DNA of 64,000 bases from an uncultured Fidelibacterota bacterium (GTDB lineage: Bacteria > Fidelibacterota > UBA8477 > JABMPR01): the NCBI GenBank assembly GCA_937888365.1, contig CALBFA010000043.1, forward strand, positions 12,498 through 76,497, read 5' to 3'. The position numbers and the translations under genes are program-made. Below the pieces are notes generated by a model. That model worked only from the letters and a program-made list of their open reading frames with translations, was not told the origin of the DNA and did no database searches. Numbering within the stretch: position 1 is the first letter of the stretch; the number at the start of each line of letters is the position of its first letter. Below are positions 3,729 through 44,686 of this stretch, piece by piece.

Positions 3729-3731
3729 CGA

Positions 3732-4856: not shown

Positions 4857-5836
4857 TTAAACCAATTTTTTTGCTAGGGTCACATAAATCTGGTACGAGT
4901 TTGCTGAGAGCTCTGTTTGACAACCACTCTCAAGTCTTTTCAATACCAATTGAGACGCATTTTGCTCATTTTTTGGGTTGGTGGACGAGATATCCATTTT
5001 TACGAACAAAAAAGAAAAACTATTCTCTTGAAGAATTTGAAAATAATGCGAGTAAATGGATTCATACTTGTAATACATCCAATGATCCGTATGGAGATAG
5101 TCAAGCAAGCGGATTGTTTGATGAGACTTTGTTTAAAGAAGAAATGGGGAAGCTTAATTCTAATTCCTCGGAGATGACTAAAATTGACCAATATTTCCGC
5201 TCTATCTATTCCGTGATCAACAAAAAAGCTGCTCCCGAAGATTTGCGATTTATTGAAAAAACTGTTGAAAACAGTGAGCATGCAATACGTATCGCTAGCT
5301 TATATCCAGATGCTAAATTCATACATATTTTAAGAAATCCTTATGCTAATTTAGTGACGCTTCGGAGATATCTACAAAAAATGAAAAAAAGCTACCCTCA
5401 TCTTGATTCACTTATAAAATCAATTTATGATAGTTTTTACTTTGCGGATTTTAACAGCACAAATATTGAAAATTATAAAATAATATATTATAAAGATCTT
5501 GTGACAAATCCACAAAAAATCATGAAGGATCTGGCGTTATTTGTCGAGATAGATTTTGAAGAAAACTTACTTACACCGAGCTATTTAGGTTCGTCTTGGG
5601 GTGGAAATTCTGTTTCGGGTAATAAATTTAAAGGTGTTTCATCGGCTCGAATCAATGCCTGGAAAAAAGATATTAACAGTTTAGAAATTGAAGTCGTGAA
5701 TGCTGTCATGGGGGTTGCTATCGAAAGAAATGACTATAAAAAAATTAAAGCAAAAAACAGAATTTTAATACCACAAAAAAGAGAATATTTTAGAGCCTAT
5801 CTAGGAAATAGGATTTTGCTAAAAAGACCATTTTAA
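4853..5836 (+). CDS. Sulfotransferase family protein
   Basis: 5'-PSB-like PAPS loop GSHKSGTSLL and 3'-PB-like ILRNPYANLVTLRRY. TTG start overlaps the upstream stop by 4 nt. Confidence 0.75.
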   Translation: MIKPIFLLGSHKSGTSLLRALFDNHSQVFSIPIETHFAHFLGWWTRYPFLRTKKKNYSLEEFENNASKWIHTCNTSNDPYGDSQASGLFDETLFKEEMGKLNSNSSEMTKIDQYFRSIYSVINKKAAPEDLRFIEKTVENSEHAIRIASLYPDAKFIHILRNPYANLVTLRRYLQKMKKSYPHLDSLIKSIYDSFYFADFNSTNIENYKIIYYKDLVTNPQKIMKDLALFVEIDFEENLLTPSYLGSSWGGNSVSGNKFKGVSSARINAWKKDINSLEIEVVNAVMGVAIERNDYKKIKAKNRILIPQKREYFRAYLGNRILLKRPF

Positions 5837-6979
5837 ATGCACATTTTAATTATTGCATCTTGGTATCCATCACCTCTCTCTTCCTATTCGGGTAATTTTG
5901 TCCAAGAACAGGTGGAGGCACTTTCAAAATCTGGATTAAAAGTTGGCGTTATTTCCTCAGTATTTTCACCCACTATAACGTTTAAAATATTTCAATCAAT
6001 TAGGGATAAGAATTATTTTTTAGCTCAAAAATCTTTTACAAAACGATTTTCATTTCTCCCGAGTAGCACCAATTATTATTGGGTAAACAATGGTTTAGAA
6101 TTATTTAAATCATATTGTGAAACGCAAGGTGTACCCGACGTAATTCATGCTCATTCGGCTCTTTATGGGGGTCGGTTGGCACTAAGCATCAAAAAACAAT
6201 TCAATATCCCTTTTATATTAACGGAGCATTCTTCCTTTCTACTTCAGAAAAAACTTCCTTGGTGGCAATTAAAAATGGCGAGGGCCGTTTATAGAAATTC
6301 CTACTTAAACATTGCTGTAAGTCGATACTTGAAAGAAAAAATTCAGCAAAACTTTAATCTAGATAAAGAAAAATGGCGTGTTTTGCCTAACATGATTAAT
6401 GATTCGTTTTTTGTATCGGAATTACATCAACCGGCCAAAGAAAAATTCATATTTTTAATTATTGGTATGCTCATACATGTCAAAGGACATCATAAGCTTT
6501 TAAAAGCTTTCGCGTTAGTAAGTGAGCAACTCTCGCTAGGAACTAAAATTAGAATTGTAGGTGACGGCCCACAAAAAGAATCTCTGTTGAATTTGGCGAA
6601 AGAATTAGGGATAGAATCACAGATTGAATGGCATGACTCGGTTCCCTCGACTGAAATTGCACATATGATTCAAGATGCTCATGTAATAGTCTCCTCCAGT
6701 GAGGCGGAAACATTTGGGCTCGTCTTAGTCGAAGCTTTGGCTTTAGGTAGACCTGTTGTAGCACTTGATAGTGGAGGACCGAGAGACATTGTCAATGATA
6801 GCGTTGGTTTTTTAATCCCTCAAGGATTTATCGAAGATTTTTCACAAGCACTAGTGAATATTCAGAAAAATTATTCTAACTATTCCCCTGAAAAGCTGAG
6901 ACATTATACTCAAGAGCGATTTCATTCAAGTGTGATTATTAATTCACTTTACTCCGCCTATAAAGAGATTGTTGCATAA
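5837..6979 (+). CDS. Glycosyltransferase family 4
   Basis: Typical GT4 C-terminal motif SSSEAETFGLVLVEALALGRPVVALDSGGPRDIV. The start abuts the upstream stop. Confidence 0.85.
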   Translation: MHILIIASWYPSPLSSYSGNFVQEQVEALSKSGLKVGVISSVFSPTITFKIFQSIRDKNYFLAQKSFTKRFSFLPSSTNYYWVNNGLELFKSYCETQGVPDVIHAHSALYGGRLALSIKKQFNIPFILTEHSSFLLQKKLPWWQLKMARAVYRNSYLNIAVSRYLKEKIQQNFNLDKEKWRVLPNMINDSFFVSELHQPAKEKFIFLIIGMLIHVKGHHKLLKAFALVSEQLSLGTKIRIVGDGPQKESLLNLAKELGIESQIEWHDSVPSTEIAHMIQDAHVIVSSSEAETFGLVLVEALALGRPVVALDSGGPRDIVNDSVGFLIPQGFIEDFSQALVNIQKNYSNYSPEKLRHYTQERFHSSVIINSLYSAYKEIVA

Positions 6980-6981
6980 CA

Positions 6982-8301
6982 ATGACATCTAAAAAACAAC
7001 TTGCATTCAATCTAAGCTCTACCTTTCTGAGACAAGTCGGAATAACAGTATTTCAGTTGGCTTTCACCGTTCTTTTGGCTCGAAATTTGGGCAAAGATAA
7101 CTATGGGGCATATGCTCTCGCTCTAATGCTTCCCCAGTTATTAATGAAAATCCTTAACCTGGGTTTAGGGTCTTCTGTCGTATATTTTCTTGCTCGCAAG
7201 GAACTCTCAATAAAAAATGCTATTTTCAAAGTTGTTCAACTCAGTGCATTTACGACAGTGCTTGCGCTATTGGCAGATGCGATTATTATATTTTTATTTG
7301 GAGACACCTTTTTCCAAAATGTTCCAACCAATGCACTTATTTTAGCTTCCGTTCTTTTCCCCGTTTTGATATTGCAAGAACTCTTACCCAATATTTTTTT
7401 AGGACTTCAAAAATTTTCAACTTATAACGTGAGTTATGTCGTTTTCCCCGTTTTCTCTCTCATTATTGTTTGGTTAATGATTCTGTTTTACAATTTTGAT
7501 GTTACTTGGGCACTCGGAGCTTTTGGGGCAGGTCAGTTTATTTCAATTTTAACGCTATTAATATTACTGAAACGAGAACAATTGCGTGAAATAGATGAGG
7601 TAACCAGTGTTTCATGGTCGCAACTGCTTTCATTTTCGTGGAAAATTCACGCCGCAAATATTGTTGGTTTTCTTAACTATCGAATTGATATTTTTTTGGT
7701 CAATTTTTTGGCGAATACGGCAACGGTAGGGATATATTTTATCGCAGTCCAAATAGCTGAAAAACTTTGGTTGTTGTCCCAAGCCGTAAACACAGCTGTT
7801 TTTCCCCATCTTTCACAGAAATATAAAAGAAGCAAGCTCGATACAAGTGCGACGGAAATTCTAGGTTCAACTACATTTTTATTAACAATATTAGCGTCTA
7901 TAATCTTGACGCTTTGTGCAAATGCCATCATTAAAACGTTTTTTGGGGAGGTATTTATTGAAGCGTCTGTTGTTTTGATATATTTATTACCTGGCATTAT
8001 CGCAACAAGTGTCGGTCGTATTTTATCAAATGATTTTAGTGCAAGAGGCGAGCCTCAACTCAACATCTATGTCGGGCTGTTTACGGTCATTTCAAATGTT
8101 ATAGCAAATTTGTATTTCATTCCCAAAATGGGTGCAAGGGGAGCCGCCTTGGCAACAAGTTTAAGTTACGGCCTTAGCCTAATCATTAAGCTATTCATCT
8201 ATTTTCAATTGGTAAAAGTACCATTTTGGAGAGTTCTATTTCCTGGAAAAGCATTAATTGATATAGGGAAAAGTATCATCGCAAATAGAAAAATAATCTG
8301 A
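6982..8301 (+). CDS. wzx: Oligosaccharide/polysaccharide flippase (Wzx, MOP superfamily)
   Basis: 439 aa and hydrophobic throughout (about 12 TM segments). It sits inside a glycan operon and has the [10 protein letters not shown] late motif typical of Wzx/MurJ-like flippases. Confidence 0.8.
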
Positions 8302-8308
8302 AGATAAT

Positions 8309-10165
8309 ATGAGTATTAGTACCTTTTTAGATCAAGACGAAAAGAAAGATCTGCTTAGATTTATTACAGCAGGTTCGGTAGATGATGGGAAATCAACTTT
8401 AATCGGCCGTTTATTGTATGATAGTAAGCTGTTGTATGAAGATCAGCTTGCCACCCTAGCTCAAGAGAGCAAAAGGCAAGGTTCTGCTGGTGCCGATATT
8501 GATTACGCGTTATTATTAGATGGATTGAAAGCTGAACGAGAGCAAGGAATAACCATCGACGTCGCGTATCGGTATTTTTCCACAAATAAACGAAAATTTA
8601 TTATTGCAGATACGCCTGGTCATGAGCAATACACACGAAACATGGTAACAGGCGCATCCACATCTCAACTTGCAATCGTTTTAATTGATGCCGAAAAAGG
8701 CGTTATTACACAAACCAAGCGGCATACATTTTTGATTGATCTTCTGGGAATAAAACACCTAATAGTGGCAATCAATAAAATGGATCTAGTTAACTATGCC
8801 CAAAATATATTTGATGAAATAGTCGAATCATTTAAATCTTTTTCGGCTAGACTATCAATACCTCATATCGAGTTTGTTCCTCTATCAGCTCTACGGGGAG
8901 ATAATGTCGTGGATGTCTCAGGAAAGATGCCTTGGTATCTTGGGAAAACACTTATGTCCATGCTGGAGACAATCCATATTTCAAATGCTTTTAATATGAT
9001 AGATTTTCGATATCCTGTACAATATGTCTTGCGACCTGATGGAAAATATCGTGGCTTTGCAGGGAGAATTGCTTCTGGAATTATTCGTGTGGGCGATGAG
9101 CTTATCGTGTTGCCATCACATTTAAAAACACGTGTAAAATCCATTAATGTCTCAACGCAAAATCAGAGTTACGCATTTGCTGGTCAATCCGTCAGTTTGG
9201 AACTTGAAGACGAAATTGATATTAGCCGAGGCGATTTACTCGTGCATCCTCAAAACATGCCTAAAACAGGACATACTTTTGATTCAACTTTGGTTTGGAT
9301 GGCTACTTCGCCGTTTGATGCATCAAGAACCTATCTTCTTAAACATACAACGCGTATTGTTAAAGCTCGTTTGAGTGAGATTCGGTATAAAATTGATGTC
9401 AATACCATGCATCGTTCGTCTGTTAAAACCTTGGGAATGAATGATATAGCAAGAGTCGCCGTTACAACACAAGAGGCCTTAAGTTTTGATGCCTATATTA
9501 AAAATAAAGAGACGGGCGCATTTGTCGTTATTGATGAACTGAGTCATGAAACAGTTGCCGTGGGTATGATTTTAGATAGGGTCGCAGAAGATGTTCCTCA
9601 ATCTCAAAAACGAACATTTGAAAGAGTCAATTATTCACAGGATAGTCTAGTGACGACTCAACAACGACTTAATAGCTATCAACAAAAAGCGCTAACATTT
9701 TGGGTCTCTTGCAATCAGCTATCTGAATGTAAAACATTCGCCTATGAGCTCGAAAAACGATTGTTTGAATCCGGAAAACATGTTGTTGTGTTGGATGCAT
9801 CGCTTGTAGGACCACTTCTTCAAGATAAGATTACTCTCATAGACGATTTCCAATACAACGAGTATCTTAAAATATTCGAGTTGGCAAAATTATTAAATGA
9901 CAATGGATTAATTGCCATCGTGAACGTTCCAATCCACAACATTTCACTAAAGCAGGATATTAAAAAAAATATTTACACAAAATCCCTAGTTGAAGTTTTT
10001 TTTGAAGTTTCTCTAAAAAAGAATAATAAGAGCCAATCTGATGCTGATTCTGAGAGTGACAAAGTAGAATCCAGGGAACAAATTTATTGTGTTTCCCAAA
10101 ATAATTGGGAGCAAATAATTACGAGGCTGTCAAAACTAGTGGAACCAGAAATCGACTGTTCGTGA
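8309..10165 (+). CDS. cysN: Sulfate adenylyltransferase subunit 1 (GTPase) fused to a degenerate APS-kinase-like domain
   Basis: GTPase motifs [14 protein letters not shown] and NKMD, then EF-Tu-like beta-barrel domains. The C-terminal ~170 aa align to CysC, but the P-loop reads [11 protein letters not shown]. Confidence 0.9.
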
Positions 10166-10210
10166 AGCGTGTCCAAAAAATTAAAAAAAAGACGCAATAA
10201 AAGGAATAGA

Positions 10211-11221
10211 ATGACGCACTCAACACTTAAAACCCAGAACCCAAATCTTATTTTAGTAATAGGCGGTGCAGGGTACATTGGAAGCCATATTGTGGCTGAT
10301 TTATTGGCTGAGGGTCACGACATTACGGTTTTTGATAACCTTTCGACGGGATTTAAAGAAAATATTCCCCGAGGTGTCAATTTCTACCATGGAGACATCC
10401 TAAATAAAGGCGATTTAAAGGGTGTATTTCAACAACCTTTCGATTGTGTGATGCATTTTGCGGCTCTAAAGGCGGCGGGGGATTCGATGCTAAATCCATC
10501 GAAATATGCGGAGCATAACATTAGCGGATCCATCAATATTCTTGACGCAATGCTCGCGGCAAATGTTAAAAACATAATCTTTTCGTCTTCGGCGGCGGTT
10601 TATGGGGCTCCGGAATATCTGCCTGTTGACGAAAAACATCCGACACATCCCGAAAACTTTTATGGCTATACTAAACTCGCCATAGAAGACATCCTAAATT
10701 GGTATGCGAAGCTTAAAAATATTAATTTTGCGGCGCTTCGTTATTTTAATGCGGCGGGTTATGATGCCTTGGGACGAGTGTCTCAACTCGAACGAAATCC
10801 TGCAAATTTATTACCTATCGTGATGGAAATTGCATCAGGCATGCGTAAAAAAATGCAGATTTTCGGTGATGATTATGACACACACGATGGAACTGGCGTA
10901 CGGGATTACATCCACGTGAACGACTTGGCAACGGCTCATATCAAAGCGATGAATTTTATTATGGAAAACAACCAAAGCTTAACCGTAAATTTAGCGACGG
11001 GTGAAGGATTTTCTGTTTTAGACGTCATCAAAGCGGTGGAGAAAATCACGGGGCAAAAAATAAATTACGAAATTGTAGCACGACGTCTCGGTGATCCAGC
11101 CGAACTAATCGCCCAAGCGTTACGGGCGGACGACATCTTGAAATGGAAGGCGAAACATTCTTCTTTAGAAAATATTTTGGAAACGATGTGGCGTGTGTAT
11201 AGAATACATCGACAGAATTAA
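10211..11221 (+). CDS. galE: UDP-glucose 4-epimerase
   Basis: Rossmann motif VIGGAGYIGSH and YGYTK catalytic motif, with GalE-like length. GTG 10169 would add a poly-Lys/Arg leader, so ATG 10211 is preferred. Confidence 0.85.
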   Translation: MTHSTLKTQNPNLILVIGGAGYIGSHIVADLLAEGHDITVFDNLSTGFKENIPRGVNFYHGDILNKGDLKGVFQQPFDCVMHFAALKAAGDSMLNPSKYAEHNISGSINILDAMLAANVKNIIFSSSAAVYGAPEYLPVDEKHPTHPENFYGYTKLAIEDILNWYAKLKNINFAALRYFNAAGYDALGRVSQLERNPANLLPIVMEIASGMRKKMQIFGDDYDTHDGTGVRDYIHVNDLATAHIKAMNFIMENNQSLTVNLATGEGFSVLDVIKAVEKITGQKINYEIVARRLGDPAELIAQALRADDILKWKAKHSSLENILETMWRVYRIHRQN

Positions 11222-11552
11222 AGTACGCGGAGGATACATAATTACTTTTGCCGATCATCATCCCCGTATAAAAATCGAGAAAAGCGATAAAAAACATGAT
11301 TAAATGCTCATGTGACGATTGTCAAAATTACAACATTTTGCTGGAAAAGACTTTCGAAATCGGGCGTTAATATTAGTATATCTCGGTCTCTAAGGATTGA
11401 TATTTACTAACAAATAAACGCTGAAAAGCATCCATAGAGATACAATAATTTTATCCATCGTGATCCACAATATTGGGACTCACCGTGGCGGAGCCGTGCG
11501 GTGAAGGTTAATTATTAATGAAAAGAAAAAGCACGACCACAAAGGGAAAATT

Positions 11553-11625
11553 GTAAGGTAAGCATCTTGCTTGCGAAAAAAGTCTAACACCAAGCTACAC
11601 AAAGAAGCACTAAGTTTCACAAAGA
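11553..11625 (+). repeat. Module B copy 1 (hairpin gtaaggtaagcatcttgcttgcg plus CACAAAG-rich tail)
   Basis: gtaaggtaagcatcttgcttgcgaaaaaagtctaacaccaagctacacaaagaagcactaagtttcacaaaga. Confidence 0.8.
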
Positions 11626-11760
11626 GGAAATTAAGTAAAGAAAGAACACGTGAAGCGAATGTTTCGCTTTTAACTTGATAAATTCTCTGTGCTCTCTGCG
11701 TAAATCTCCGTTTCCTCTGTGGTTAAAAGAGTCTCATATTATCTCATAGACTAAAATAAC

Positions 11761-11892
11761 GTAGAGCAAAAAACACTCTCCTCCATGCTAAGGAGGAGTA
11801 CCCGCCCGTTTGCGGGGGAGGTGGTAGAAAGTACTGCCTCATAAACAAATCCACTCAATCCTTGAAATCCGTGTCCAATATTTTTTACTTTA
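11761..11892. repeat. Element A copy 1 (~133-nt structured dispersed repeat)
   Basis: gtagagcaaaaaacactctcctcc..aaggaggagtacccgcccgtttgcgggggaggtggtag...atccttgaaatccgtgtcca..ttttttactt. One of five near-identical copies, all in the same orientation. Confidence 0.85.
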
Positions 11893-11951
11893 CCGTTATA
11901 AGAAAACAAAACAGTCCTCAAATGAACACAAATGGTTTAAATGGAAAACTT

Positions 11952-11986
11952 GTCACCTGTCACCCGTCACTCTTCACGCGTCAATT
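11952..11986 (+). repeat. Heptanucleotide array (5 units, GTCACNN type)
   Basis: gtcacct gtcaccc gtcactc ttcacgc gtcaatt. Strict 7-nt register. Confidence 0.8.
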
Positions 11987-12174
11987 CCCTCCGTGGTAAT
12001 TATTTTTAAGACGACACAGGAGATTTTCAACACAATGACAATGCCAAAATTATTTAAACGTCAATCGCATTTTTTTCATAAAAATACTTGTCCTTAACTA
12101 TTTAGCGAATACTTTAACGAATAAATGACGCATCAAAGCGTAAATATGGAAAACGAGAGATAAACTAATAAATT

Positions 12175-12858
12175 ATGAGGGAAAAAATGAAAAAATTATT
12201 GTTACTGATTTTCATGATTGTAGTAGCCCTACCTTTGATGGCTCAAGACGACATGATGATGGAAGATTCTACTGTAATGGAAGAAGTTGTAATGGATTCT
12301 ATGGCAACAGTTGTTGATACTGTCGCTGCAGAGTTAACAGATGTCGCTGAAGAAGCCGTTGCTGCCGTTGAAGAAATGGTCGAAGCACCAAAAGCCGAAG
12401 GCATGAAGGGTATTTTCGTCGCTCCACAATTTAACTATATCCTTTTCAAACCTTTAAATTCGGGTGGTTCAGGAATGAGCTATGGCATATCAGTTGGTAC
12501 ACCTGTTATGTTTGATTTATTCGGAATGAATGCTCATGTTGTTGTGGATTTAGGCATGGTCAGTGAAGGTACAGATGCAGCGGTTGAAGGTTTTGTTGCA
12601 ATGGCAGGTTTTTTGACTAAAGTCGCCAAACTTCCTTTTGGTTGCGTTGTTGTTGACTCAAAATTAGGTTGGGCTGGCGAAGGTTTTGGTGCTAATCTTT
12701 CTGCAAATATTGTTTATCCAGTTGCTGGTATGCCTTTAAAAATTGTTGCTAAAGTCGGTGCTGGTGGTGGTTTAATGGCAGATGATGCAGGTGCATTCAA
12801 CCATGTATTCTTTGGACTTGCTGCTAACTACAGCTTGGATGACTTACTCAACAAATAA
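12175..12858 (+). CDS. Hypothetical secreted protein with Met/Glu/Val-rich N-terminal region
   Basis: Signal peptide MKKLLLLIFMIVVALPLMAQD, then an acidic low-complexity segment and a Gly/Ala/Val-rich C-terminal half with alternating hydrophobicity. Followed by a terminator hairpin. Confidence 0.6.
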   Translation: MREKMKKLLLLIFMIVVALPLMAQDDMMMEDSTVMEEVVMDSMATVVDTVAAELTDVAEEAVAAVEEMVEAPKAEGMKGIFVAPQFNYILFKPLNSGGSGMSYGISVGTPVMFDLFGMNAHVVVDLGMVSEGTDAAVEGFVAMAGFLTKVAKLPFGCVVVDSKLGWAGEGFGANLSANIVYPVAGMPLKIVAKVGAGGGLMADDAGAFNHVFFGLAANYSLDDLLNK

Positions 12859-12880
12859 ACGAGTAAAAATAGTTGATTTT

Positions 12881-12908
12881 AAAAACCCCGGCTTGCTGGG
12901 GTTTTTTG
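12881..12908 (+). terminator. Intrinsic terminator downstream of 12175-12858
   Basis: aaaaaCCCCggcttgctGGGGtttttt: a G/C stem flanked by an A-run and a T-run, 23 nt after the stop codon. Confidence 0.7.
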
Positions 12909-12971
12909 TTTGATGGACGTGATGCCGTTTTGGGCTTCCAGTTCCCCGCAGATTGCGCAGAAAAAAAAATT

Positions 12972-13044
12972 GTAATGTAAGCCTCTTGCTTGCGGAAAAG
13001 TGTAACACCAAGGCACACGAAGAAACACCAAGTTTCACAAAGGG
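12972..13044 (+). repeat. Module B copy 2 (diverged hairpin)
   Basis: gtaatgtaagcctcttgcttgcggaaaagtgtaacaccaaggcacacgaagaaacaccaagtttcacaaaggg. Confidence 0.75.
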
Positions 13045-13120
13045 AAAAAAGTAAAAAGATAGCGAAAAATACAAAAACATCACACAAAGCCACGAAGCCA
13101 CAAAGAAATATTATCTCTCA

Positions 13121-13149
13121 TTCCCCTCCCAGGAGGGGTAGGGGTGGGT
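13121..13149 (+). repeat. Module C copy (CCCCTCC..GGAGGGG palindrome plus AGGGGTGGGT)
   Basis: ttcccctcccaggaggggtaggggtgggt. Confidence 0.8.
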
Positions 13150-13206
13150 CACTCTGATCAGCCAGTGGGCGGAGAAGCATCTCCTCAAGTCTCATAGCAA
13201 AAAATA

Positions 13207-13340
13207 GTAAGGTAAGCATCTTGCTTGCGAAAAAAGTCTACTACCCTTCGACAAGCTCAGTGCAGGCGCAGTCGCACGAAGCCACAAAGAGAAAAAGTCT
13301 ACCACTAAGTTGCACAAAGAAGCACCGAGTTTCACAAAGA
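13207..13340 (+). repeat. Module B copy 3 with an internal insertion of a ttcgacaagctcag module
   Basis: The hairpin is identical to copy 1. The tail is interrupted by ctacccttcgacaagctcagtgcaggcgcagtcgcacgaagccacaaag. Confidence 0.75.
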
Positions 13341-13354
13341 AAAGCATTATTTTA

Positions 13355-13384
13355 TTCCCCTCCAAGGAGGGGTTAGGGGTGGGT
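13355..13384 (+). repeat. Module C copy
   Basis: ttcccctccaaggaggggttaggggtgggt. Confidence 0.8.
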
Positions 13385-13507
13385 AAGAATTACAAATGAT
13401 AAATTACAAATGTATATAACAGCCGTATTTTTCTAAAATCAAATATAATTTTCTCTGCGTTCTCTGTGGTTAAAAGAGTCTCATGTAATCTCATAGACTA
13501 AAATAAC

Positions 13508-13640
13508 GTAGAGCCAAAAACACTCTCCTCCTTGCGAAGGATGAGTACCCGCCAGTTTGCGGGGGAGGTGGTAGAAAAGCACTGCCTTATAAATAAATCC
13601 ACCCAATCCTTGAAATCCGTGTCCACTATTTTTTACTTTT
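13508..13640. repeat. Element A copy 2
   Basis: Same element. Hairpin 1 carries one stem mismatch (aaggaTgag) and a loop change (gcg). Confidence 0.85.
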
Positions 13641-13821
13641 CCGTGACACACCTACTACAATAAGACACACGAGATTCTTCATGGCGTTGGATTATGTCAT
13701 CCTGAGCAGTGGAGTGCAGCGTAACACCCGTCGAAGGATATAGAAAGAAAAAATGAATGATTAATCTTAAATATTTCATGTCCAACACTTCGACAGGCTC
13801 AGCATGACATGAAACGGTTTT

Positions 13822-13870
13822 GTCACTTGTCACCCATAACTCATAACTCGTCACATGTCACTCTTTACTT
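13822..13870 (+). repeat. Heptanucleotide array (7 units)
   Basis: gtcactt gtcaccc ataactc ataactc gtcacat gtcactc tttactt. Lies 109 nt upstream of pal. Confidence 0.85.
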
Positions 13871-13978
13871 TTTTTATTTATAATTTAACATTTAGCATTT
13901 GTAATTTTCAACTATATTACGCCGAACAAAAAGGCGCTAACAAAAATTTACGCCTAAACCCTAAGGAGGGGATAAAAT

Positions 13979-14581
13979 ATGAGAAAGATAACCCTTGTTT
14001 TAATGATGCTGGTGATGGGGAGTGCTGCCCTGTTTTTTATGTCGGGATGTTCCAAAGAGAAGAAACAAGTGCCTGCAAATGACACAACAGTTGTCGAAGA
14101 GACAACCGCTGTTCGAGAACCCGTTAAAGAAACCGCTCCAACCAGCGATATGGTAGCCAAACAAGCAGATGCTGCTGCTGCGGAAAAGGCTAAGGCAAAA
14201 GTCCAAGCCAAAGCTGCAGCTAAAGTGCTACAGGATGAAAAAAATGTTTTTGAATCTGAAAAAATCCATTTTACCTACAACAAATCTGTTTTGGCGCCAT
14301 CTGCTCAAAAAGTATTAGAAAAGAAAGCCGACTGGTTGATTAAACATCCCAGCTATTCAGTACGTATCGAAGGTAATTGCGATGAGCGAGGCAGCAATAA
14401 ATACAACCTTACCCTGGGAGCCGATAGAGCTAGATCTGCTGAGAAATACCTTGTAAATATGGGTATTGCAGCAAACCGTATTTCCACAGTTAGCTACGGC
14501 GAAGAGAAGCCAGCTGATCCGAGCCATAACGAAAAGGCTTGGTCTCAGAATCGGAGAGATGAGTTCAAACTTATCAAGTAG
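13979..14581 (+). CDS. pal: Peptidoglycan-associated lipoprotein (OmpA-family)
   Basis: Lipobox FFMSGC. OmpA-like domain motifs NCDERGSNKYNLTLGADRARSAEKYL and VSYGEEKP. Confidence 0.85.
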   Translation: MRKITLVLMMLVMGSAALFFMSGCSKEKKQVPANDTTVVEETTAVREPVKETAPTSDMVAKQADAAAAEKAKAKVQAKAAAKVLQDEKNVFESEKIHFTYNKSVLAPSAQKVLEKKADWLIKHPSYSVRIEGNCDERGSNKYNLTLGADRARSAEKYLVNMGIAANRISTVSYGEEKPADPSHNEKAWSQNRRDEFKLIK

Positions 14582-14599
14582 TGACTTGCCGACTCTTGG

Positions 14600-14660
14600 C
14601 ATGTTTACGATGTTGAGAGTGAGGTTCAACTACAATTTGGTTGACCCACTCAACACATAA
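14600..14660 (+). pseudogene. Remnant of the 3' end of a paralogue of the 12175-12858 gene
   Basis: The reading frame ends ..RVRFNYNLVDPLNT-stop, against ..GLAANYSLDDLLNK-stop at 12858. aactacaatttggttgacccactcaacacataa matches aactacagcttggatgacttactcaacaaataa at 26 of 33 positions, followed by an identical downstream flank. Confidence 0.45.
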
Positions 14661-14685
14661 ACGAGTAAAAATAGTTGATTTTAAA

Positions 14686-14713
14686 AACCCCGGCTTGCTG
14701 TGGTTTTTTTGTC
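14686..14713 (+). terminator. Duplicated, slightly degenerate copy of the 12881 terminator, downstream of pal
   Basis: aaaaaccccggcttgctgtggttttttt. One stem mismatch relative to the 12881 copy. Confidence 0.55.
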
Positions 14714-14739
14714 TTACGGACGTGATGACGTTTTGGTTG

Positions 14740-14794
14740 AAAAGTGTAACACCAAGGCACACGAAGAAACACCAAGTTTCACAAAGGGAAAAAA
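14740..14794 (+). repeat. Module B copy 4 (tail only)
   Basis: 55 nt identical to 12996-13050. Confidence 0.85.
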
Positions 14795-14952
14795 ATAAAT
14801 CATTCCATCAGACAGCGCAGAATTTCGCAGAAATAATATATAGTTTAGAGCAGCCCATGACTTTAGTCGTGGGGGCAATTTGGAAAAAAACTTTTTTTAT
14901 AATCGTTAATCTCTCAGTAGTAAAATCTTCGGGGTTTCACGAGATCGCAATA

Positions 14953-15007
14953 ACCTACCCCTAACCCCTTCTCCCGACGCGTTGGTCGGGATTTTCAACG
15001 AAAGGGG
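14953..15007 (-). repeat. Module C copy, inverted, with a nested hairpin inserted in its loop
   Basis: acctacccctaaccccttc-tcccgacgcgttggtcggga-ttttcaacgaaagggg. Confidence 0.7.
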
Positions 15008-15024
15008 AACTAACTTTATCTTGT

Positions 15025-15121
15025 GTCGCTCATCACCCGTCACCTGTCACTCAAAACTCATAACTCATAACTTGCACTCGTCACCTGTCACATTTTGTAA
15101 TTTGTAATTCACCACTTTCAC
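15025..15121 (+). repeat. Heptanucleotide array (14 units, one 6-nt unit)
   Basis: gtcgctc atcaccc gtcacct gtcactc aaaactc ataactc ataactt gcactc gtcacct gtcacat tttgtaa tttgtaa ttcacca ctttcac. Ends 12 nt before the dppB-like ATG. Confidence 0.85.
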
Positions 15122-15133
15122 TTACCTTGCCCC

Positions 15134-16057
15134 ATGATTCAATTTATCATTCGCCGCATCCTTGAGCTCATTCCCGTAATTATAGGTATAATTTTACTCA
15201 CATTCATTCTCATGTACATTGTTCCTGGCGATCCCGTATTGAGTATGGTGGGTGAACGTTATGACGAAGCGACTCTAGAAATCCTGCGAGAACAATTCCA
15301 TTTAAATCAATCGCTACCCACTCAATTTTTTCATTATTTGAATGGTTTAATCCATGGTGATTTAGGCATTTCATTTGTGAATCAACAACCCGTTACGAAA
15401 CTCATAATGGAACGTTTCCCCGCAACAATGATTTTAGCACTAGGCGCCATGTTTATCTCCATATTATTAGGACTCTCTGTAGGTGTCATTTCAGCCATCA
15501 AACCCCATAGCATTATAGATCGCGCAGCGATGCTGTTTGCGTTGGCGGGGATATCGATGCCTGTATTCTGGGTGGGATTATTACTCGTGTTGGCAGCTCA
15601 ATCAATGGGTTGGCAATATCTCAGCGGCTATGGTTGTTGGGCCTATTTAGTGTTACCAGCCATCACACTGGGAACACGATCTGCTGCATTTCTCGCACGC
15701 GTTACACGAGCCAATATGCTTGAAGTTCTGAATCAAGATTATATACGAACTGCAAGAGCAAAAGGATTGAGTCAACTTATTGTCATTACAAAGCACGCCC
15801 TTAAAAACACACTTATTCCGATTGTCACCATTATTGGTGTTGATTTTGGTTCGTACTTGTCGGGAGCTGTATTGACAGAATCGATCTTTAATTGGCCGGG
15901 TATTGGTCGGCTAGCATTGAATGCAATTATGCAGCGAGATTTTCCCGTTATTCAAGGAACGGTTCTCGTCACGGCGTTGGTTTTTGTAACATCCAATTTT
16001 ATCGTCGATATTCTTTATGGTTATCTCGATCCGCGGATAAGAATTGAGAAATCATAA
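15134..16057 (+). CDS. ABC transporter permease, peptide/nickel type (DppB/OppB-like)
   Basis: N-terminal FIIRRILELIPVIIGI and EAA-like loop DYIRTARAKGLS, characteristic of the BPD_transp_1 OppB family. Confidence 0.85.
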   Translation: MIQFIIRRILELIPVIIGIILLTFILMYIVPGDPVLSMVGERYDEATLEILREQFHLNQSLPTQFFHYLNGLIHGDLGISFVNQQPVTKLIMERFPATMILALGAMFISILLGLSVGVISAIKPHSIIDRAAMLFALAGISMPVFWVGLLLVLAAQSMGWQYLSGYGCWAYLVLPAITLGTRSAAFLARVTRANMLEVLNQDYIRTARAKGLSQLIVITKHALKNTLIPIVTIIGVDFGSYLSGAVLTESIFNWPGIGRLALNAIMQRDFPVIQGTVLVTALVFVTSNFIVDILYGYLDPRIRIEKS

Positions 16058-16233
16058 ATGATTAATTTTAAAACGATTTCATTGATGGTGCTCGGAAAAG
16101 GAGCAAATAGGAGATCATTATTCCCTTCTTGTTGCCAATCCGGAATTCAATTCCCCTCTGCCCGACCTATGTGTCCGTCGAAGGATAAAGAATGAAAACG
16201 ATGAAAGTTCCATCACAGGAATAAGGAAATAAA

Positions 16234-17103
16234 TTGAGTCGCAAAGAAACCATAAGCGCTGAAACAATTCGCAAATTGAGTCACAATCCGATGGCAATTT
16301 TCGGTTTATTTCTCGTCCTACTTATTATAACAGTGGGGGTTTTTGCCCCCGTTTTTGCGCCGAATAATCCTTACGAGACAAACCTTGATATAAGTCTCCA
16401 AGCACCGTCAATGTCGCACTGGCTCGGCACAGACGAAGAAGGTCGTGATGTTTTATCTCGCATCATTTACGGTGCGAGGATTAGTTTAAAAGTCGGCTTT
16501 TTAGCCAGTACCATCAGCTTAATGATTGGTTCGCTTTTAGGTTTGATTGCCGGTTTTTTGGGTGGATGGCTTGATAAAATCATCATGCGTTTTACGGACG
16601 TTATGTTTGGCTTCCCAGCTCTTCTCTTTATGATTGGTATTACGGCTGCCGTTCCACGGCCTGGTATTGAAATTACAATGATTGCTATTGGCCTTGTCTC
16701 CTGGCCAAGTATGGCAAGAATTATGCGATCGCAAGTGCTAATGATTGCCAATAGAGAATATGTTTTGGCGGCTCAAGCATTGGGTTTTTCCAAAGCACGA
16801 CAAATGTTTCGACACGTTTTGCCCAATAGCCTTGCCCCCGTTATTGTTGCCTTTACAATGAGTATTGCAGGAGCGGTTATGGCAGAGGCATCATTGTCAT
16901 TTATTGGCTTAGGCGCTCAACCTCCAGAGCCCAGTTGGGGTTCTATGATTGCTTTTGGACGCGCACATCTACGAGGTGAATGGTGGATTTCTATTTTTCC
17001 AGGACTCGCAATTGCACTAATGGTTTTAGGGTTCAATCTTTTTGGTGAGGGGCTCCGTGATGCTCTAGATCCAACCATGAATGTTGATAAAAACGAACAA
17101 TAG
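16234..17103 (+). CDS. ABC transporter permease, peptide/nickel type (DppC/OppC-like)
   Basis: HWLGTDEEGRDVLSRIIYGARISL and EYVLAAQALGFS motifs typical of OppC/DppC. TTG start. Confidence 0.85.
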   Translation: MSRKETISAETIRKLSHNPMAIFGLFLVLLIITVGVFAPVFAPNNPYETNLDISLQAPSMSHWLGTDEEGRDVLSRIIYGARISLKVGFLASTISLMIGSLLGLIAGFLGGWLDKIIMRFTDVMFGFPALLFMIGITAAVPRPGIEITMIAIGLVSWPSMARIMRSQVLMIANREYVLAAQALGFSKARQMFRHVLPNSLAPVIVAFTMSIAGAVMAEASLSFIGLGAQPPEPSWGSMIAFGRAHLRGEWWISIFPGLAIALMVLGFNLFGEGLRDALDPTMNVDKNEQ

Positions 17104-17129
17104 CCACCAAGTCGCAAAGAAAAACGATA

Positions 17130-17176
17130 GTAAGGTAAGCATCTTGCTTGCGGTTGAAATAATCTTGTGCAAAGAG
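17130..17176 (+). repeat. Module B copy 5 (hairpin, diverged tail)
   Basis: gtaaggtaagcatcttgcttgcggttgaaataatcttgtgcaaagag, starting 27 nt after the dppC-like stop. Confidence 0.7.
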
Positions 17177-17202
17177 AAAAAAACTACTACGGAGCATGTC
17201 CC

Positions 17203-17230
17203 GTAACCAGTAACACGTGACACGTAACAA
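17203..17230 (-). repeat. Heptanucleotide array, inverted orientation (4 units)
   Basis: gtaacca gtaacac gtgacac gtaacaa. This is the reverse complement of the GT(C/T)ACNN register. Confidence 0.6.
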
Positions 17231-17312
17231 GAAAAAATAAAGACTCACACCCTTCGACAAGCTCAGGACAGGCGCCGTTGCACTAAGCCACAAAGAAAAA
17301 GCTTATTTTTTA

Positions 17313-17341
17313 TTCCCCTCCAAGGAGGGGCAGGGGTGGGT
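17313..17341 (+). repeat. Module C copy
   Basis: ttcccctccaaggaggggcaggggtgggt. Confidence 0.8.
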
Positions 17342-17347
17342 TTCTTT

Positions 17348-17417
17348 GTCACGTGTCACTCATAACTCAAAACCCATCACTCGTCACTCGTCACTTGTCA
17401 CACGTTTCCTGTCACCC
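17348..17417 (+). repeat. Heptanucleotide array (10 units)
   Basis: gtcacgt gtcactc ataactc aaaaccc atcactc gtcactc gtcactt gtcacac gtttcct gtcaccc. Confidence 0.85.
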
Positions 17418-17463
17418 TGAATGAAATGAAGGGTCCCCTCAAGTCTCATAGCAAAAAAATAGT

Positions 17464-17596
17464 GTAGAGCAAAAAACGCTCTCCTCCTTGCTAAGGAGGA
17501 GTACCCGCTAGTTTGCGGGGGAGGTGGTAGATTGCACTATCTCATAAACAAATCCACCCAATCCTTGAAATCCGTGTCCACTATTTTTTACTTTTT
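17464..17596. repeat. Element A copy 3
   Basis: Same element. Differences fall mainly in the hairpin-2 loop (cccgcTAgtttgcggg) and the central spacer. Confidence 0.85.
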
Positions 17597-17723
17597 CGTT
17601 ATAAGAAAACAAAACAGTCCTCAAATGCACACAAATGAACACAAATGGTTTAAATGGAAAGCCTGTCACTTTGCCACCATTTTATGCTTCGACGGACGCT
17701 TGCGCTGCTCAGCCAGACAAATG

Positions 17724-17751
17724 GTGACTTGTCACTCGTTACTTGTCACCC
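17724..17751 (+). repeat. Heptanucleotide array (4 units)
   Basis: gtgactt gtcactc gttactt gtcaccc. Confidence 0.7.
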
Positions 17752-17925
17752 TGCTCAGCCAGTTGGCGGAAAAGAGTCCCATGCAATCTCATAGACGAAA
17801 GTACAGCAAAACGACGCACGAGATTCTTCATTACGCTTTGCTCCATTCAGAATGACAAAACTAACGCAAACCTGTCACCCTGAGCCCGTCGAAGGGTCTC
17901 CTCAAATCTCATAGACTAAAATAGC

Positions 17926-18059
17926 GTAGAGCAAAAAAAACACTCTCCTCCTTGCTAAGGAGGAGTACCCGCCAGTTTGCGGGGGAGGTGGTAGAAAGTA
18001 CTGCCACAAAACAAATCCACCCAATCCTTGAAATCCGTGTCCACTATTTTTTACTTTTT
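17926..18059. repeat. Element A copy 4
   Basis: Same element, close to the consensus. Confidence 0.85.
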
Positions 18060-18136
18060 CGTGACACACGAGATTCTTCATTGCGCTTTGCTTCATTCAG
18101 AATGACAATATCTGGGTTTTTCACGCGTTCGCAAAA

Positions 18137-18164
18137 ACCTACCCCTAACCCCTTCTGGAAGGGG
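18137..18164 (-). repeat. Module C copy, inverted
   Basis: acctacccctaaccccttctggaagggg. Confidence 0.8.
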
Positions 18165-18192
18165 AACTAGCTTTCTCTTGTGCACAACGATA

Positions 18193-18265
18193 GTAAGGTA
18201 AGCATCTTGCTTGCGAAAAAAGTCTACCACCAAGTTCCACGAAGAAGCACCGAGTTCCACAAAGA
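18193..18265 (+). repeat. Module B copy 6
   Basis: gtaaggtaagcatcttgcttgcgaaaaaagtctaccaccaagttccacgaagaagcaccgagttccacaaaga. Confidence 0.8.
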
Positions 18266-18286
18266 AAAACAAAAGCAAAAAATAGC

Positions 18287-18420
18287 GTAGAGCAAAAAAA
18301 CACTCTCCTCCTTGCGAAGGAGGAGTACCCGCCCGTTTGCGGGGGAGGTGGTAGAAAACACTGCCTCATAAACAAATCCACCCAATCCTTGAAATCCGTG
18401 TCCACTATTTTTTACTTTTT
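18287..18420. repeat. Element A copy 5
   Basis: Same element. Hairpin-1 loop is gcg. Confidence 0.85.
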
Positions 18421-18505
18421 CGTGACACGCCTGCTACATAAAGACACACGAGATTCTTCATTACGCTCTGTAGTAAAATCTTCGGGGTTTCACGAGATCG
18501 CAATA

Positions 18506-18535
18506 ACCTACCCCTAACCCCTTCCAAAAGAGGAA
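18506..18535 (-). repeat. Module C copy, inverted, with a degenerate right arm
   Basis: acctacccctaaccccttccaaaagaggaa. Confidence 0.7.
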
Positions 18536-18550
18536 CTAGCTTTCTCTTGT

Positions 18551-18606
18551 GTCACCCATAACTCATAATTCAAAACCCATCACTCTTCACGCGTCACTCG
18601 TCACCG
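18551..18606 (+). repeat. Heptanucleotide array (8 units)
   Basis: gtcaccc ataactc ataattc aaaaccc atcactc ttcacgc gtcactc gtcaccg. Lies 97 nt upstream of mgtE. The unit order parallels the 17348 array. Confidence 0.85.
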
Positions 18607-18702
18607 CCCCCACCCATCAATAAGCGATATGAATAATAAACATTATAATAATTCTTCGCTTCAATTGACTTCATAGACCGAAAAACTAAATTCACTCCTC
18701 AA

Positions 18703-20076
18703 ATGAAAGACACCAGACTCCATATAGACGCAATTAGAAGACTCTTGAGACGACACGCAAAAGGTAATCTCGAGAAAGTATTGACGAAACTTCATCCTGC
18801 TGATATTGCACTGATTTTTAGACATCTCAATGAAGATGAACGCGCGCAGGTCTTTCTAATTATCCCAACTGTTGAGCAAGCAGCCGAAGTCTTATCTGAA
18901 TTAGACGATAGCATTATCGAAGAAATTCTCCCGGATTTACCGATGGAGAAAATTCTTTTATTAATGAAAGAGCTTTCGGCTGATGATGAAGTTGCGATTC
19001 TAAGGTTACTCCCAGAAGAGCTATCGGATAAGATTCTTACCCAACTCAAAGGGAAAGAATCAGAAGAGATGGAAGCCCTCATGGCCTACAAGGAAGATTC
19101 CGCCGGGGCGCTTATGACGACGGAAGTTTTTGCCCTCCATGAAGATTTATCCGTAAAAGACGCCATTTCATCAATTCAAACCCAAGTAAATCAAGAGATG
19201 GTTTTCTATCTTTATGTTATTGATGACCACAGACGCCTCGTAGGTGTCATTTCATTACGCGACCTCATTACATCAAAACCTGGAAACCTCCTGTCCAATA
19301 TTATGACAACGCGTGTCCATTCAGTTGATACGGATATGAATCAAGAAGAAGTGGCACACGTTGTTTCGCGTTACAATATTCTGGCAGTCCCCGTTGTCGA
19401 TGAAGCCCATACACTCCTCGGTATTATTACGGTGGACGACGTTATCGACGTTATTCGAGAAGAAGCCACCGAAGACTTTTTGCAGATGGCCGGTGCGGGT
19501 CGTGATAAAGAGATCATTAGTAAAAACGTTTTTGATAATGTAAAATTACGGATCCCTTGGTTATTTGCATCTTGGATTGGTGGACTACTAGTGGCATCTA
19601 TCATCTCTAAATATGAAACAACTCTTGGGCAAGTTTTAGCCCTTGTGGCATTTTTACCCATTATTACGGGGATGGCTGGAAACGTTGGAACACAGACCTC
19701 AACCATCATTGTACGCGGTATTGCAACGGGTAGAGTCACGCATCAGGATAGTCTGGCGACGGTTTTTAAAGAGTTTCGTGTTGGTATTATTTTAGGTTTA
19801 CTTTATGGCCTTTTACTCGGTGGCGCTGGCTATTTAGTGGGTAGTTTAGAAATTATGGATTTAGGCGTTATGACGCCAGAACAGTTAGGCATTACCGTCG
19901 GCTCAGGCATATTTTCCGCCATGACGATTGCCACAACGATTGGCGCATTTATACCCATTGTTTTGGAAAAGCTCAATCAAGACCCGGCCATTGCAACAGG
20001 TCCTTTCGTCACAACAGCTATCGATATTGCCGGCGTCTTTGTCTATTTTGTTATTGCTAGTTTTTTCATTTTTTAA
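18703..20076 (+). CDS. mgtE: Magnesium transporter
   Basis: MgtE N-domain, CBS pair, and C-terminal TM domain with PIITGMAGNVGTQ and ATGPFVTTAIDI motifs. Confidence 0.9.
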   Translation: MKDTRLHIDAIRRLLRRHAKGNLEKVLTKLHPADIALIFRHLNEDERAQVFLIIPTVEQAAEVLSELDDSIIEEILPDLPMEKILLLMKELSADDEVAILRLLPEELSDKILTQLKGKESEEMEALMAYKEDSAGALMTTEVFALHEDLSVKDAISSIQTQVNQEMVFYLYVIDDHRRLVGVISLRDLITSKPGNLLSNIMTTRVHSVDTDMNQEEVAHVVSRYNILAVPVVDEAHTLLGIITVDDVIDVIREEATEDFLQMAGAGRDKEIISKNVFDNVKLRIPWLFASWIGGLLVASIISKYETTLGQVLALVAFLPIITGMAGNVGTQTSTIIVRGIATGRVTHQDSLATVFKEFRVGIILGLLYGLLLGGAGYLVGSLEIMDLGVMTPEQLGITVGSGIFSAMTIATTIGAFIPIVLEKLNQDPAIATGPFVTTAIDIAGVFVYFVIASFFIF

Positions 20077-41703: not shown

Positions 41704-41956
41704 TCGGTTTACTTCTTTAATTATTTATGTAAGTCAAACGGCTTGGATCGCTTAATTTGATGCGCAAACCATGAAGGATTTTATTTTATCCAAAAAAGTG
41801 ACTATATTTGATTGATATACCTTATACCAGAATGATATGAAGCATCAAAATACTTCACAATTAAAATTCATCATATCCTCCTATTATTACCTAACTTATG
41901 CAATTAGTATCATAATGGTATATCTATTGCGAAAACCTTGGCGCGAGGAGAAAGCA

Positions 41957-44611: not shown

Positions 44612-44630
44612 AGCTGAAATTTGACAACAT

Positions 44631-44670: not shown

Positions 44671-44686
44671 TGTTCCGTAATATATC

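Follow-up and report, generated by a model that had tools for sequence, protein, structure and literature searches.

Element A and its repeat island

The 64,000-nt window analyzed here (the whole stretch of DNA under study, part of contig CALBFA010000043.1) contains five copies of a short, structured, non-coding repeat, hereafter element A, located among protein-coding genes that all face the same way. All large open reading frames (ORFs) between positions 2195 and 25514 are on the + strand, and no credible minus-strand gene was found in this interval. The locus sits on an 84,189-bp contig of the JGI metagenome 3300074305, the genes of which include T9SS (type IX secretion system) Por_Secre_tail and SusC-like TonB receptor genes. 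Among named sequences, its OppC-like permease has its closest homologues in metagenome-assembled genomes (MAGs) of Marinimicrobia and Fidelibacterota, at no more than 79% identity. The host is an uncultured lake bacterium that, judged by sequence, belongs to the FCB group and most resembles Marinimicrobia. The locus was recovered in six other independent assemblies (five, then one more), which are 99.94-100% identical and contain the same five copies, so that an assembly artefact is ruled out, but which thus also offer no population variation to exploit. Copy 3, or the sequence just before it, is where three of these six assemblies stop; a fourth stops ~190 nt upstream of this copy.

Self-BLAST of the window yielded 37 repeat pairs, of which 36, all direct and belonging to at least eight families, lie inside a single island that includes all five copies of A (Table 1). 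Outside the island, none of its repeat families was found, either in the rest of the window (~57 kb) or in the 20 kb of the source contig that the window does not cover, where BLAST, nhmmer and covariance model searches also detected no further copy of A; the five copies are thus confined to 6.7 kb of the 84-kb contig. A had been described in a first-pass annotation of the window; it is real, but that annotation missed that it is one of at least eight co-oriented families in one island. The repeats occupy unusually long intergenic regions, of 550-1600 nt, among + strand genes for a 227-aa secreted protein, an OmpA-like lipoprotein, dppB, dppC and mgtE. Their order is polar, namely, gene, terminator, B, (E/F), pre-A, A, post-A, (C/D7), heptamers, next gene, and the same order recurs at L017, the metagenome contig that carries the sixth known copy of A (see below).

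Table 1. Positions of element A, its parts, the surrounding repeat modules and the palindromic elements that share its 20-mer
Feature	Position	Strand	Evidence and remarks
Repeat island	11540-18604	+	families A, B, C, D7, E, F and heptamer runs; all direct; between + strand genes
A copy 1	11753-11897	+	nhmmer E=2.7e-49; covariance model 175.6 bits; hairpin 1 11778-11798 (one A.A mismatch); hairpin 2 11801-11816; 3' domain 11847-11877
A copy 2	13500-13645	+	alignment, nhmmer, covariance model; hairpin 1 13525-13545 (one C.T mismatch); hairpin 2 13548-13563; 3' domain 13595-13625
A copy 3	17456-17599	+	alignment, nhmmer, covariance model; hairpin 1 17481-17501; hairpin 2 17504-17519; 3' domain 17550-17580
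A copy 4	17918-18062	+	alignment, nhmmer, covariance model; hairpin 1 17945-17965; hairpin 2 17968-17983; 3' domain 18013-18043
A copy 5	18279-18423	+	alignment, nhmmer, covariance model; left flank is the tail of a B module, other copies differ
Terminator-like unit, copy 1	11766-11798		
Terminator-like unit, copy 2	13513-13545		
Terminator-like unit, copy 3	17469-17501		
Terminator-like unit, copy 4	17931-17965		
Terminator-like unit, copy 5	18292-18325	-	hairpin 1 18305-18325, CTCCTCCTT-cgc-AAGGAGGAG, then AGTG and T-run 18304-18292
Hairpin 2, copy 5	18328-18343	.	CCCGC-ccgttt-GCGGG
Hairpin 3, copy 5	18345-18367	+	GAGGUGGU/ACUGCCUC, two G.U pairs; possible on + strand only
3' domain, copy 5	18374-18404	.	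AAATCCACCCAATCCTTGAAATCCGTGTCCA; most conserved part, unstructured
Core-less paralogous site	17790-17815	+	left flank GAAAGTACAGCAAAAC joined straight to right-flank C module GACGCACGAGATTC; aligned with copies 3, 4 and L017
B module	11547-11640, 12966-13055, 13201-13245, 13292-13346, 14739-14799, 17115-17152, 18190-18282		
E module (TTATTCCCCTCCAAGGAGGGGCAGGGGTGGGT)	17307-17343, 13091-13149, 13333-13384		
Heptamer tandem runs (GTCACNN, ATAACTC)	11950-11985, 13821-13875, 15017-15100, 17347-17415, 17720-17750, 18545-18604		
D7 repeat	14913-14971, 18466-18524		the two sites 98% identical
Palindromic element	L002:3459-3628		Anaerolineae MAG
Palindromic elements	L010:230-340, L011:201-306, L016:1572-1720		three contigs, one high-GC assembly
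Palindromic elements	L012:6706-6822, L009:7910-8000, L013:2256-2471		L012 is the same locus as L014
Solo arm with 19/20-mer	L003:3709-3750		Flavobacterium MAG

Conservation and boundaries of element A

Reading of the window together with alignment of the copies and their flanks delineates a conserved unit of ~145 nt, always on the + strand. The five same-orientation copies of the first-pass annotation were all found where it had placed them, each being slightly longer than the ~133 nt then proposed, and the identity of ~90% that had been estimated compares with measured pairwise values of 88.4-95.2% among the five window copies, copy 5 being the nearest to all others (92-95%). Two invariant sub-motifs of A have exactly 5 matches each in the 64-kb window when up to 3 mismatches are allowed; in shuffled sequences, the 21-mer AATCCTTGAAATCCGTGTCCA is expected 0.01 times and a 30-mer across hairpin 2, 0.00 times.

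The differences between the copies do cluster, as had been claimed from inspection: 14 of the 20 columns of the central spacer (alignment columns 78-97) vary, compared to 3 of 31 in the 3' domain (Fisher p = 1e-5), and none of the 10 columns of the GAGGTGGTAG stretch does. The sequence GGGGGAGGTGGTAG (CUACCACCUCCCCC on the minus strand) is invariant across all six copies. Such strongly non-uniform variation speaks for the hairpins and the 3' domain being under constraint. Most of the variable sites are C/T on the + strand. The ends of the element, previously described as weakly inverted, consist of a 9-nt, A/T-rich pair, AAAATAGYG / CRCTATTTT, which is perfect only in copy 3 (one of the six copies) and absent in L017; the latter also has GTAT instead of GTAG at the left end, so that this tag is not conserved.

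The sequences that flank A are shared among the copies in a mosaic fashion. Copy 1 has its left flank in common with copy 2 and its right flank in common with copy 3, and the right flank of copy 2 is that of copy 5; the identities of the cores do not track the flanks (89% between copies 1 and 3, 92.5% between copies 1 and 5). At one paralogous site, the left and right flanks are joined without the core (Table 1), which identifies a core of ~123 nt as a discrete indel unit and leaves the A-run in the flank. The core ends are sharp and common to the copies, after AAAATAG and before GACAC or TATAAG, and both the A and the B modules start after (A)ATAG or ATTG. On a larger scale, the segment 12826-12933, which comprises the 3'-terminal 33 nt of the 227-aa ORF with its strong + strand terminator, recurs at 14628-14736, after the OmpA-like gene, with 89% identity, which points to a cassette-like gene replacement or a segmental duplication within the island.

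Predicted structures and the terminator-like unit

All copies contain two hairpins that had already been recognized in the first-pass annotation, together with the single mismatches in hairpin 1 of copies 1 and 2. Hairpin 1, CTCCTCCTT-(gct/gcg)-AAGGAGGAG, has a stem of 9 bp, including 5 G-C pairs, and a 3-nt loop, and hairpin 2, CCCGC-nnGTTT-GCGGG, has a stem of 5 bp and a 6-nt loop. On the + strand, a run of 5-8 A directly precedes hairpin 1, so that the order on the minus strand is stem-loop, AGYG, T-run. A consensus terminator scan flagged this minus-strand hairpin and T-run in 5 of the 5 window copies; altogether, there are 19 terminator-like sites in 11200-18800, compared to 7.7 +/- 2.8 in shuffles. 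The unit had been called a canonical Rho-independent terminator that ends no known gene, the neighbors being on the + strand. The arrangement and the gene context both hold up, but "canonical" is generous because the T-run (5-8 T) begins 4 nt past the stem, after an AGTG or AGCG spacer, and we refer to the unit as terminator-like rather than textbook.

The stem of hairpin 2 is invariant in the five window copies, and L017 has CCCGC/GTGGG, which yields a G.U pair on the + strand and an A.C mismatch on the minus strand. Hairpin 3 is paired at 95.8% on the + strand, compared to 70.8% on the minus strand, and competes with a GGUGG/CCACC helix. The unstructured 3' domain, which is C-rich and G-poor on the + strand, holds three AATCC repeats (GGATT on the minus strand) ~10 nt apart. 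The predicted fold of A is a three-way branched structure.

The two strands fold about equally well, each only modestly better than shuffled sequence. Minus-strand folds compare to shuffles at z = -2.1, -1.4 and -4.2, and + strand folds at z = -2.4, -2.5 and -3.0; the same helices are paired at 91.9% on the + strand and 87.6% on the minus strand, and an alternative structure at 90.3% and 93.0%, respectively. No compensatory double changes were found at any pair on either strand, in a set of six sequences with 82-95% identity that has low power, and the percent pairing of the helices in the six sequences is no better than in column shuffles. Hairpin 2, hairpin 3 and the GGUGG/CCACC helix stay paired on the + strand via G.U at all seven variable positions, and the GGUGG/CCACC helix of L017, broken on the minus strand, is likewise kept on the + strand by G.U. 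The terminal stem (P0) and a mini-hairpin favor the minus strand, so that the overall vote of G.U pairs on the strand is mixed; moreover, because most variable sites are C/T, the + strand pattern may simply stem from a C-to-T mutational bias.

Element A is rare in sequence databases

No full-length A was found in 185,579 species genomes, where an exact 19-mer scan returned 7 matches against ~4 expected by calculation; five of these are chance matches in coding sequence, and two come from a palindromic element or a solo arm. A 20-mer scan of 241 million metagenome contigs detected one true copy (L017), seven palindromic elements and one chance match in coding sequence. The L017 copy, from the 19-kb contig ERZ890510 NODE-1080, shares 82-85% identity with those of the window and sits 190 nt downstream of a gene that is unrelated and beta-barrel-like; the protein encoded by this neighbor has no entry in the protein database and no orthologue in the DNA compared. 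A 17-mer scan of viral contigs gave chance matches only, and searches of the literature by sequence string returned only primer coincidences. The loci of two relatives with 79% amino-acid identity in OppC are compact, with a different gene order, and lack A according to BLAST, nhmmer and covariance model searches.

At the protein level, a concatenated six-frame translation of A had no matches among 5.8 billion proteins, and a HMMER search with the ORF over copy 5 against 1.8 billion representatives returned nothing but the ORF called over copy 4 at this very locus. Minus-strand ORFs have been called near A, namely, a 73-aa ORF at 13633-13854, beside copy 2, in the public annotation, which is made of repeat modules and has no Pfam match, and a 64-aa ORF over copy 4 in one public assembly (P0121); all such ORFs are built from the repeats themselves.

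At the RNA level, a covariance model of the six copies, one of the checks that had been proposed, recruited no new members; its weak matches (18-27 bits) are to palindromic elements and are driven by a common 20-mer. Comparison with Rfam, also proposed, gave no match at gathering score in the window and none overlapping A in 11200-18800 even at E<=5. Several specific identities for A were considered and dropped, namely, tRNA or tmRNA; a riboswitch or M-box upstream of mgtE (no Rfam match); a type I toxin-antitoxin (only a 10-aa, frame-unstable ORF); and a CsrA sponge or DnaA, IHF or sigma-54 sites (poor matches by eye).

A 20-mer in common with palindromic elements of other bacteria

The exact 20-mer AATCCTTGAAATCCGTGTCC from the 3' domain of A recurs in palindromic intergenic elements of ~90-110 nt in unrelated, mostly high-GC bacteria (Table 1). 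The arms of these GGACACGGAT elements repeat CACGGAT(T) three times in the same direction, with a period of ~10 nt, and an A-run and a T-run frequently enclose the arms; A has one such arm only. The palindromic elements have no Rfam match, and no target-site duplication (TSD) is evident. The sharing of the 20-mer might go back to a common ancestor, to one protein that binds both kinds of element or to the end of a mobile element. One reading built on this motif, in which A represents either sibling minus-strand regulatory RNAs or a GGATT-repeat domain serving as a protein-recognition array, with its 5' module GGACACGGATTTCAAGGATT... also present in the palindromic elements of the distant phyla Chloroflexota and Bacteroidota and of high-GC unknowns, appears unlikely to us.

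Other modules and neighboring genes

The B module opens with a 7-bp hairpin, GTAAGCATCTTGCTTGC, which includes a G.T wobble on the + strand only, and continues with four CACNAAG heptamers spaced at a period of 10 nt; in every case, it comes first among the modules past the 3' end of a gene. The tandem heptamer runs are mostly located 30-190 nt upstream of + strand gene starts and recall heptad operator arrays or cyanobacterial STRR repeats. The E module has a sub-threshold Rfam match to CRISPR-DR10 (22.6 bits, E=0.18), which is probably due to chance, no array being present. In the public scaffold L031 (positions 1-155), copy 5 and its right flank are joined to the region upstream of dppB via the 59-nt D7 repeat; this junction is either a chimeric assembly or a real recombinant that deletes or duplicates dppBC.

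The gap between dppB and dppC (16058-16233) is 176 nt long and contains repeat-like sequence (GTCGAAGGAT); in the 79%-identity relatives, the two genes overlap or are 2 nt apart. Upstream of the island, the region 2201-11221 encodes an APS kinase, a PAPS-reductase-like CysD, a CysN/CysC fusion, a sulfotransferase, three glycosyltransferases, a flippase and an epimerase, which looks like a sulfated-polysaccharide pathway. The sole repeat pair outside the island, and the sole inverted repeat identified by self-BLAST, is a near-perfect (88%) 49-nt palindrome at 44626-44674, between the convergent genes 41837-44611 (+) and 44687-46618 (-), where it probably serves as a terminator in both directions. 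Among the Pfam matches of the genes on the 84-kb contig, there are no domains of a transposase, integrase, RAYT or reverse transcriptase.

Origin and putative function of element A

Element A is a real repeat and represents a new family within a known kind, small structured extragenic repeats. We tentatively favor, at slightly less than an even chance, the reading that A is the best-conserved module of a co-oriented extragenic mosaic that was spread by local duplication and recombination and the hairpin and T-run of which would stop antisense transcription. The copies would have arisen mainly by local duplication within the 7-kb stretch, and recombination at short A-rich homologies (AAAATAG and similar) would have reshuffled the left and right flanks among them; independent cut-and-paste insertions need not be invoked for this pattern. 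The element itself would act as DNA or RNA hairpins, a short A/T terminal duplex enclosing three stem-loops. The strongest of these, with its T-run, would stop RNA polymerase entering on the minus strand and so insulate the region against antisense transcription, and the 3' domain, with its three regularly spaced GGATT repeats, would be most simply a protein-recognition array. In favor of this reading are the confinement and shared orientation of the 36 repeat pairs, the polar module order that recurs at L017, the reticulate flank affinities, the duplicated 12826-12933 segment, the core-less paralogous site, the lack of TSDs and of mobility domains, the terminator-like calls in 5 of 5 copies, the non-uniform variation, the compact loci of the nearest relatives, which lack A, and the SPRITE precedent. 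Several points weigh against it. No minus-strand gene needs terminating here, which makes the role of an antisense insulator speculative; the T-run is separated from the stem by 4 nt; and the A-run lies in the flank, outside the indel-defined 123-nt core. The L017 copy, beside an unrelated gene, betrays some dispersal that pure local duplication does not explain, and the sharp common core ends would fit a discrete mobile unit as well. Finally, the copy number rests on one 84-kb contig of the organism.

Such a mobile unit could be a true MITE (miniature inverted-repeat transposable element), an option already raised in the first-pass annotation, or a SPRITE-like non-autonomous element, mobilized in trans and inserted repeatedly, in part nested, into a permissive region. 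Its size below 200 nt, lack of coding capacity, strong structure and A/T inverted termini would suit A to this role, as would the discrete core ends next to flanks of differing types, the single paralogous site that lacks the core, the copy at another locus and the match between the 3' domain and one arm of palindromic elements that are multi-copy in other bacteria. A hallmark, however, is missing: the proposed check for target-site duplications flanking the copies turned up none at any boundary of the six copies, a scan of 60 x 60 boundary offsets (3,600 combinations) giving only a 2-nt match, itself within the conserved sequence. SPRITEs also lack detectable TSDs and cluster with other repeats (PMC3049150), a point in favor of this option; against it, the terminal inverted repeat (TIR) is short, imperfect and missing in L017, the flanks are mosaically related rather than unique, and five copies in a single orientation lie within 6.7 kb. 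Furthermore, there is no presence/absence polymorphism in the six assemblies, no transposase in 84 kb, and only one other copy in the metagenome contigs and none in the species genomes that were searched. The MITE option thus gained no support, and we consider mobilization of this type quite unlikely. Still less probable, to a degree that makes it very improbable, is recognition as folded single-stranded DNA, with A being an attC-like site of an integron or CALIN array or an IS200/IS605-type end (PATE). Structured, co-oriented, ~90% identical repeats of ~145 nt that separate small gene units, with reshuffled left and right flanks, with a hairpin 1 that begins ~25 nt from the left end, and with A and B modules that both begin after (A)ATAG or ATTG, do evoke such sites. 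But no RYYYAAC / GTTRRRY core sites are conserved at the ends of A, which is not one long imperfect hairpin with extrahelical bases and has no hairpin near its right end; no integrase, TnpA or TnpB was seen in 84 kb; and the would-be cassettes include a two-gene ABC permease operon and an mgtE gene, each with its own signals.

Alternatively, A could act as RNA. The first-pass annotation proposed that each copy is an independently transcribed minus-strand RNA, and a family of sibling small RNAs (sRNAs) of ~110-130 nt can indeed be envisaged, with a 5' end near GGACACGG, a single-stranded 5' seed, GGACACGGAUUUCAAGGAUUGGGUGGAUUUG, C/U-rich anti-Shine-Dalgarno-like sequences, CCACCUCCCCC and CUCCUCCUU, and a Rho-independent terminator. 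The minus-strand layout fits, with a conserved unstructured 5' domain, a variable middle, and, in 6 of 6 copies, conserved 3' hairpins and a T-run; A is present in tandem and in multiple copies; GGGGGAGGTGGTAG does not change; minus-strand folds are somewhat more stable than shuffles; and sibling sRNAs that occur in several copies and bear CU-rich motifs are known from elsewhere (PMC4132741). However, a consensus scan predicted no sigma-70-like promoter upstream on the minus strand of any copy, and beyond ~22 nt from the conserved 5' domain, the upstream sequence belongs to two unrelated flank types. There are no compensatory changes, pairing does not exceed that in shuffles, the + strand folds as well as the minus strand, the GGUGG/CCACC helix that the minus-strand fold contains is disrupted on that strand in L017 but preserved on the + strand by G.U, and there is no Rfam relative. 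Because most genes here lack strong Shine-Dalgarno sequences, a seed directed against them would have few targets. Six copies that are all antisense to their neighbors, with the surrounding modules repeated alongside, would be unexpected for free-standing genes. All told, the sRNA-family proposal gained no support, and we rate it as rather unlikely. On the opposite strand, A might be a sense-strand cis-acting RNA (a stabilizer in an untranslated region, a processing site, a Rho-loading site or a hairpin that sequesters the Shine-Dalgarno sequence), cotranscribed with the + strand genes in the manner of REP or BOX, but this seems improbable. It would account for the co-orientation of all modules with the genes, for the + strand pairing that hairpin 3 and the GGUGG/CCACC helix maintain through G.U across 7 one-sided changes, and for the resemblance of the + strand 3' domain to a rut site, with a C>G skew of +0.185 in the 17104-18702 spacer vs -0.048 in genes. 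The G.U pattern, however, could equally reflect C-to-T bias on the + strand, and P0 and the mini-hairpin vote for the minus strand. Moreover, copies 1 and 2 each follow a terminator-like hairpin on the + strand (11650-11667 and 12881-12906), and copy 2 lies upstream of the best promoter-like site of the next gene (13855-13884), so that these copies may be in no mRNA; and with copies 3, 4 and 5 stacked in one spacer, at most one of them can be adjacent to a gene.

Relationship to known repeat families

The best documented analogue of A, by resemblance in kind, is found in pneumococcal clusters of SPRITE, BOX and RUP, set beside A here on the basis of their descriptions. With AAAA/TTTT at its ends and a terminator-like duplex plus U tract, SPRITE exists in ~30 copies and shows no detectable TSD (PMC3049150), and it bunches with BOX and RUP in Streptococcus pneumoniae (PMC3049150, PMC10969869). 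A has in common with SPRITE a size below 200 nt, the lack of coding capacity, AAAA/TTTT-type termini, a stem with a U tract, a low copy number, the absence of TSDs and bunching with other repeats. The differences are that the stem of A is 9 bp long, compared to 18 bp in SPRITE, and that A adds two hairpins and a 31-nt unstructured conserved domain; that SPRITE is located near the 3' ends of convergent genes, whereas the terminator-like unit of A is antisense to both neighbors, with the copies 280-340 nt or more from genes; and that 5 of the 6 known copies of A are in one 6.7-kb island and in one orientation, in a different phylum. More generally, A is like MITEs (Correia/NEMIS, RUP, ERIC; reviewed in PMC10969869) in size, lack of coding capacity, strong secondary structure and intergenic location, but differs from them in the absence of TSDs, the 9-nt imperfect TIR, the related flanks, the single orientation and the clustering.

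The bacterial interspersed mosaic elements (BIMEs) of enterobacteria, which consist of REP units, appear to be a looser analogue. REP units are described as palindromes of 20-40 nt, usually with more than 100 per genome, that alternate in orientation within BIMEs and are tied to RAYT transposases (PMC2817692, PMC3733652). BIMEs, like the island, are intergenic mosaics of short conserved hairpin motifs in variable combinations, for which roles as terminators, mRNA stabilizers or protein-binding sites have been proposed. Against that description, the A unit is 145 nt long, all modules are direct, no RAYT/Y1 transposase was seen in 84 kb, and GTAG, which with CGTC is one of the tags of REP palindromes, is not conserved. 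Among RNA families, LhrC1-5 of Listeria provides the comparison for the sRNA reading: these ~110-nt copies are driven by regulated promoters of their own, and their transcripts and targets have been demonstrated (PMC4132741). Approximately five tandem or dispersed copies of ~110 nt, C/U-rich motifs that pair with ribosome-binding sites and a Rho-independent terminator would be the common features; in contrast to LhrC, A is known from sequence alone and has no conserved promoter.

Implications

Islands of this kind break short-read assemblies and create spurious ORF calls. The 20-30-nt motif that crosses phyla would deserve a study of its own, and if the reading built on it is true, the GGACACGGATTTCAAGGATT module would be a widespread, undescribed recognition motif or mobile-element end. 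If a minus-strand RNA exists, A would be the first sibling-sRNA family proposed for this lineage. If, as we tentatively favor, A belongs to an extragenic mosaic, the island would be a clean case, outside the well-studied Firmicutes and Proteobacteria, of small structured repeats piling up in one permissive region, and would show how such repeats can reshuffle gene-flanking sequence by recombination in a lineage of otherwise compact genomes.

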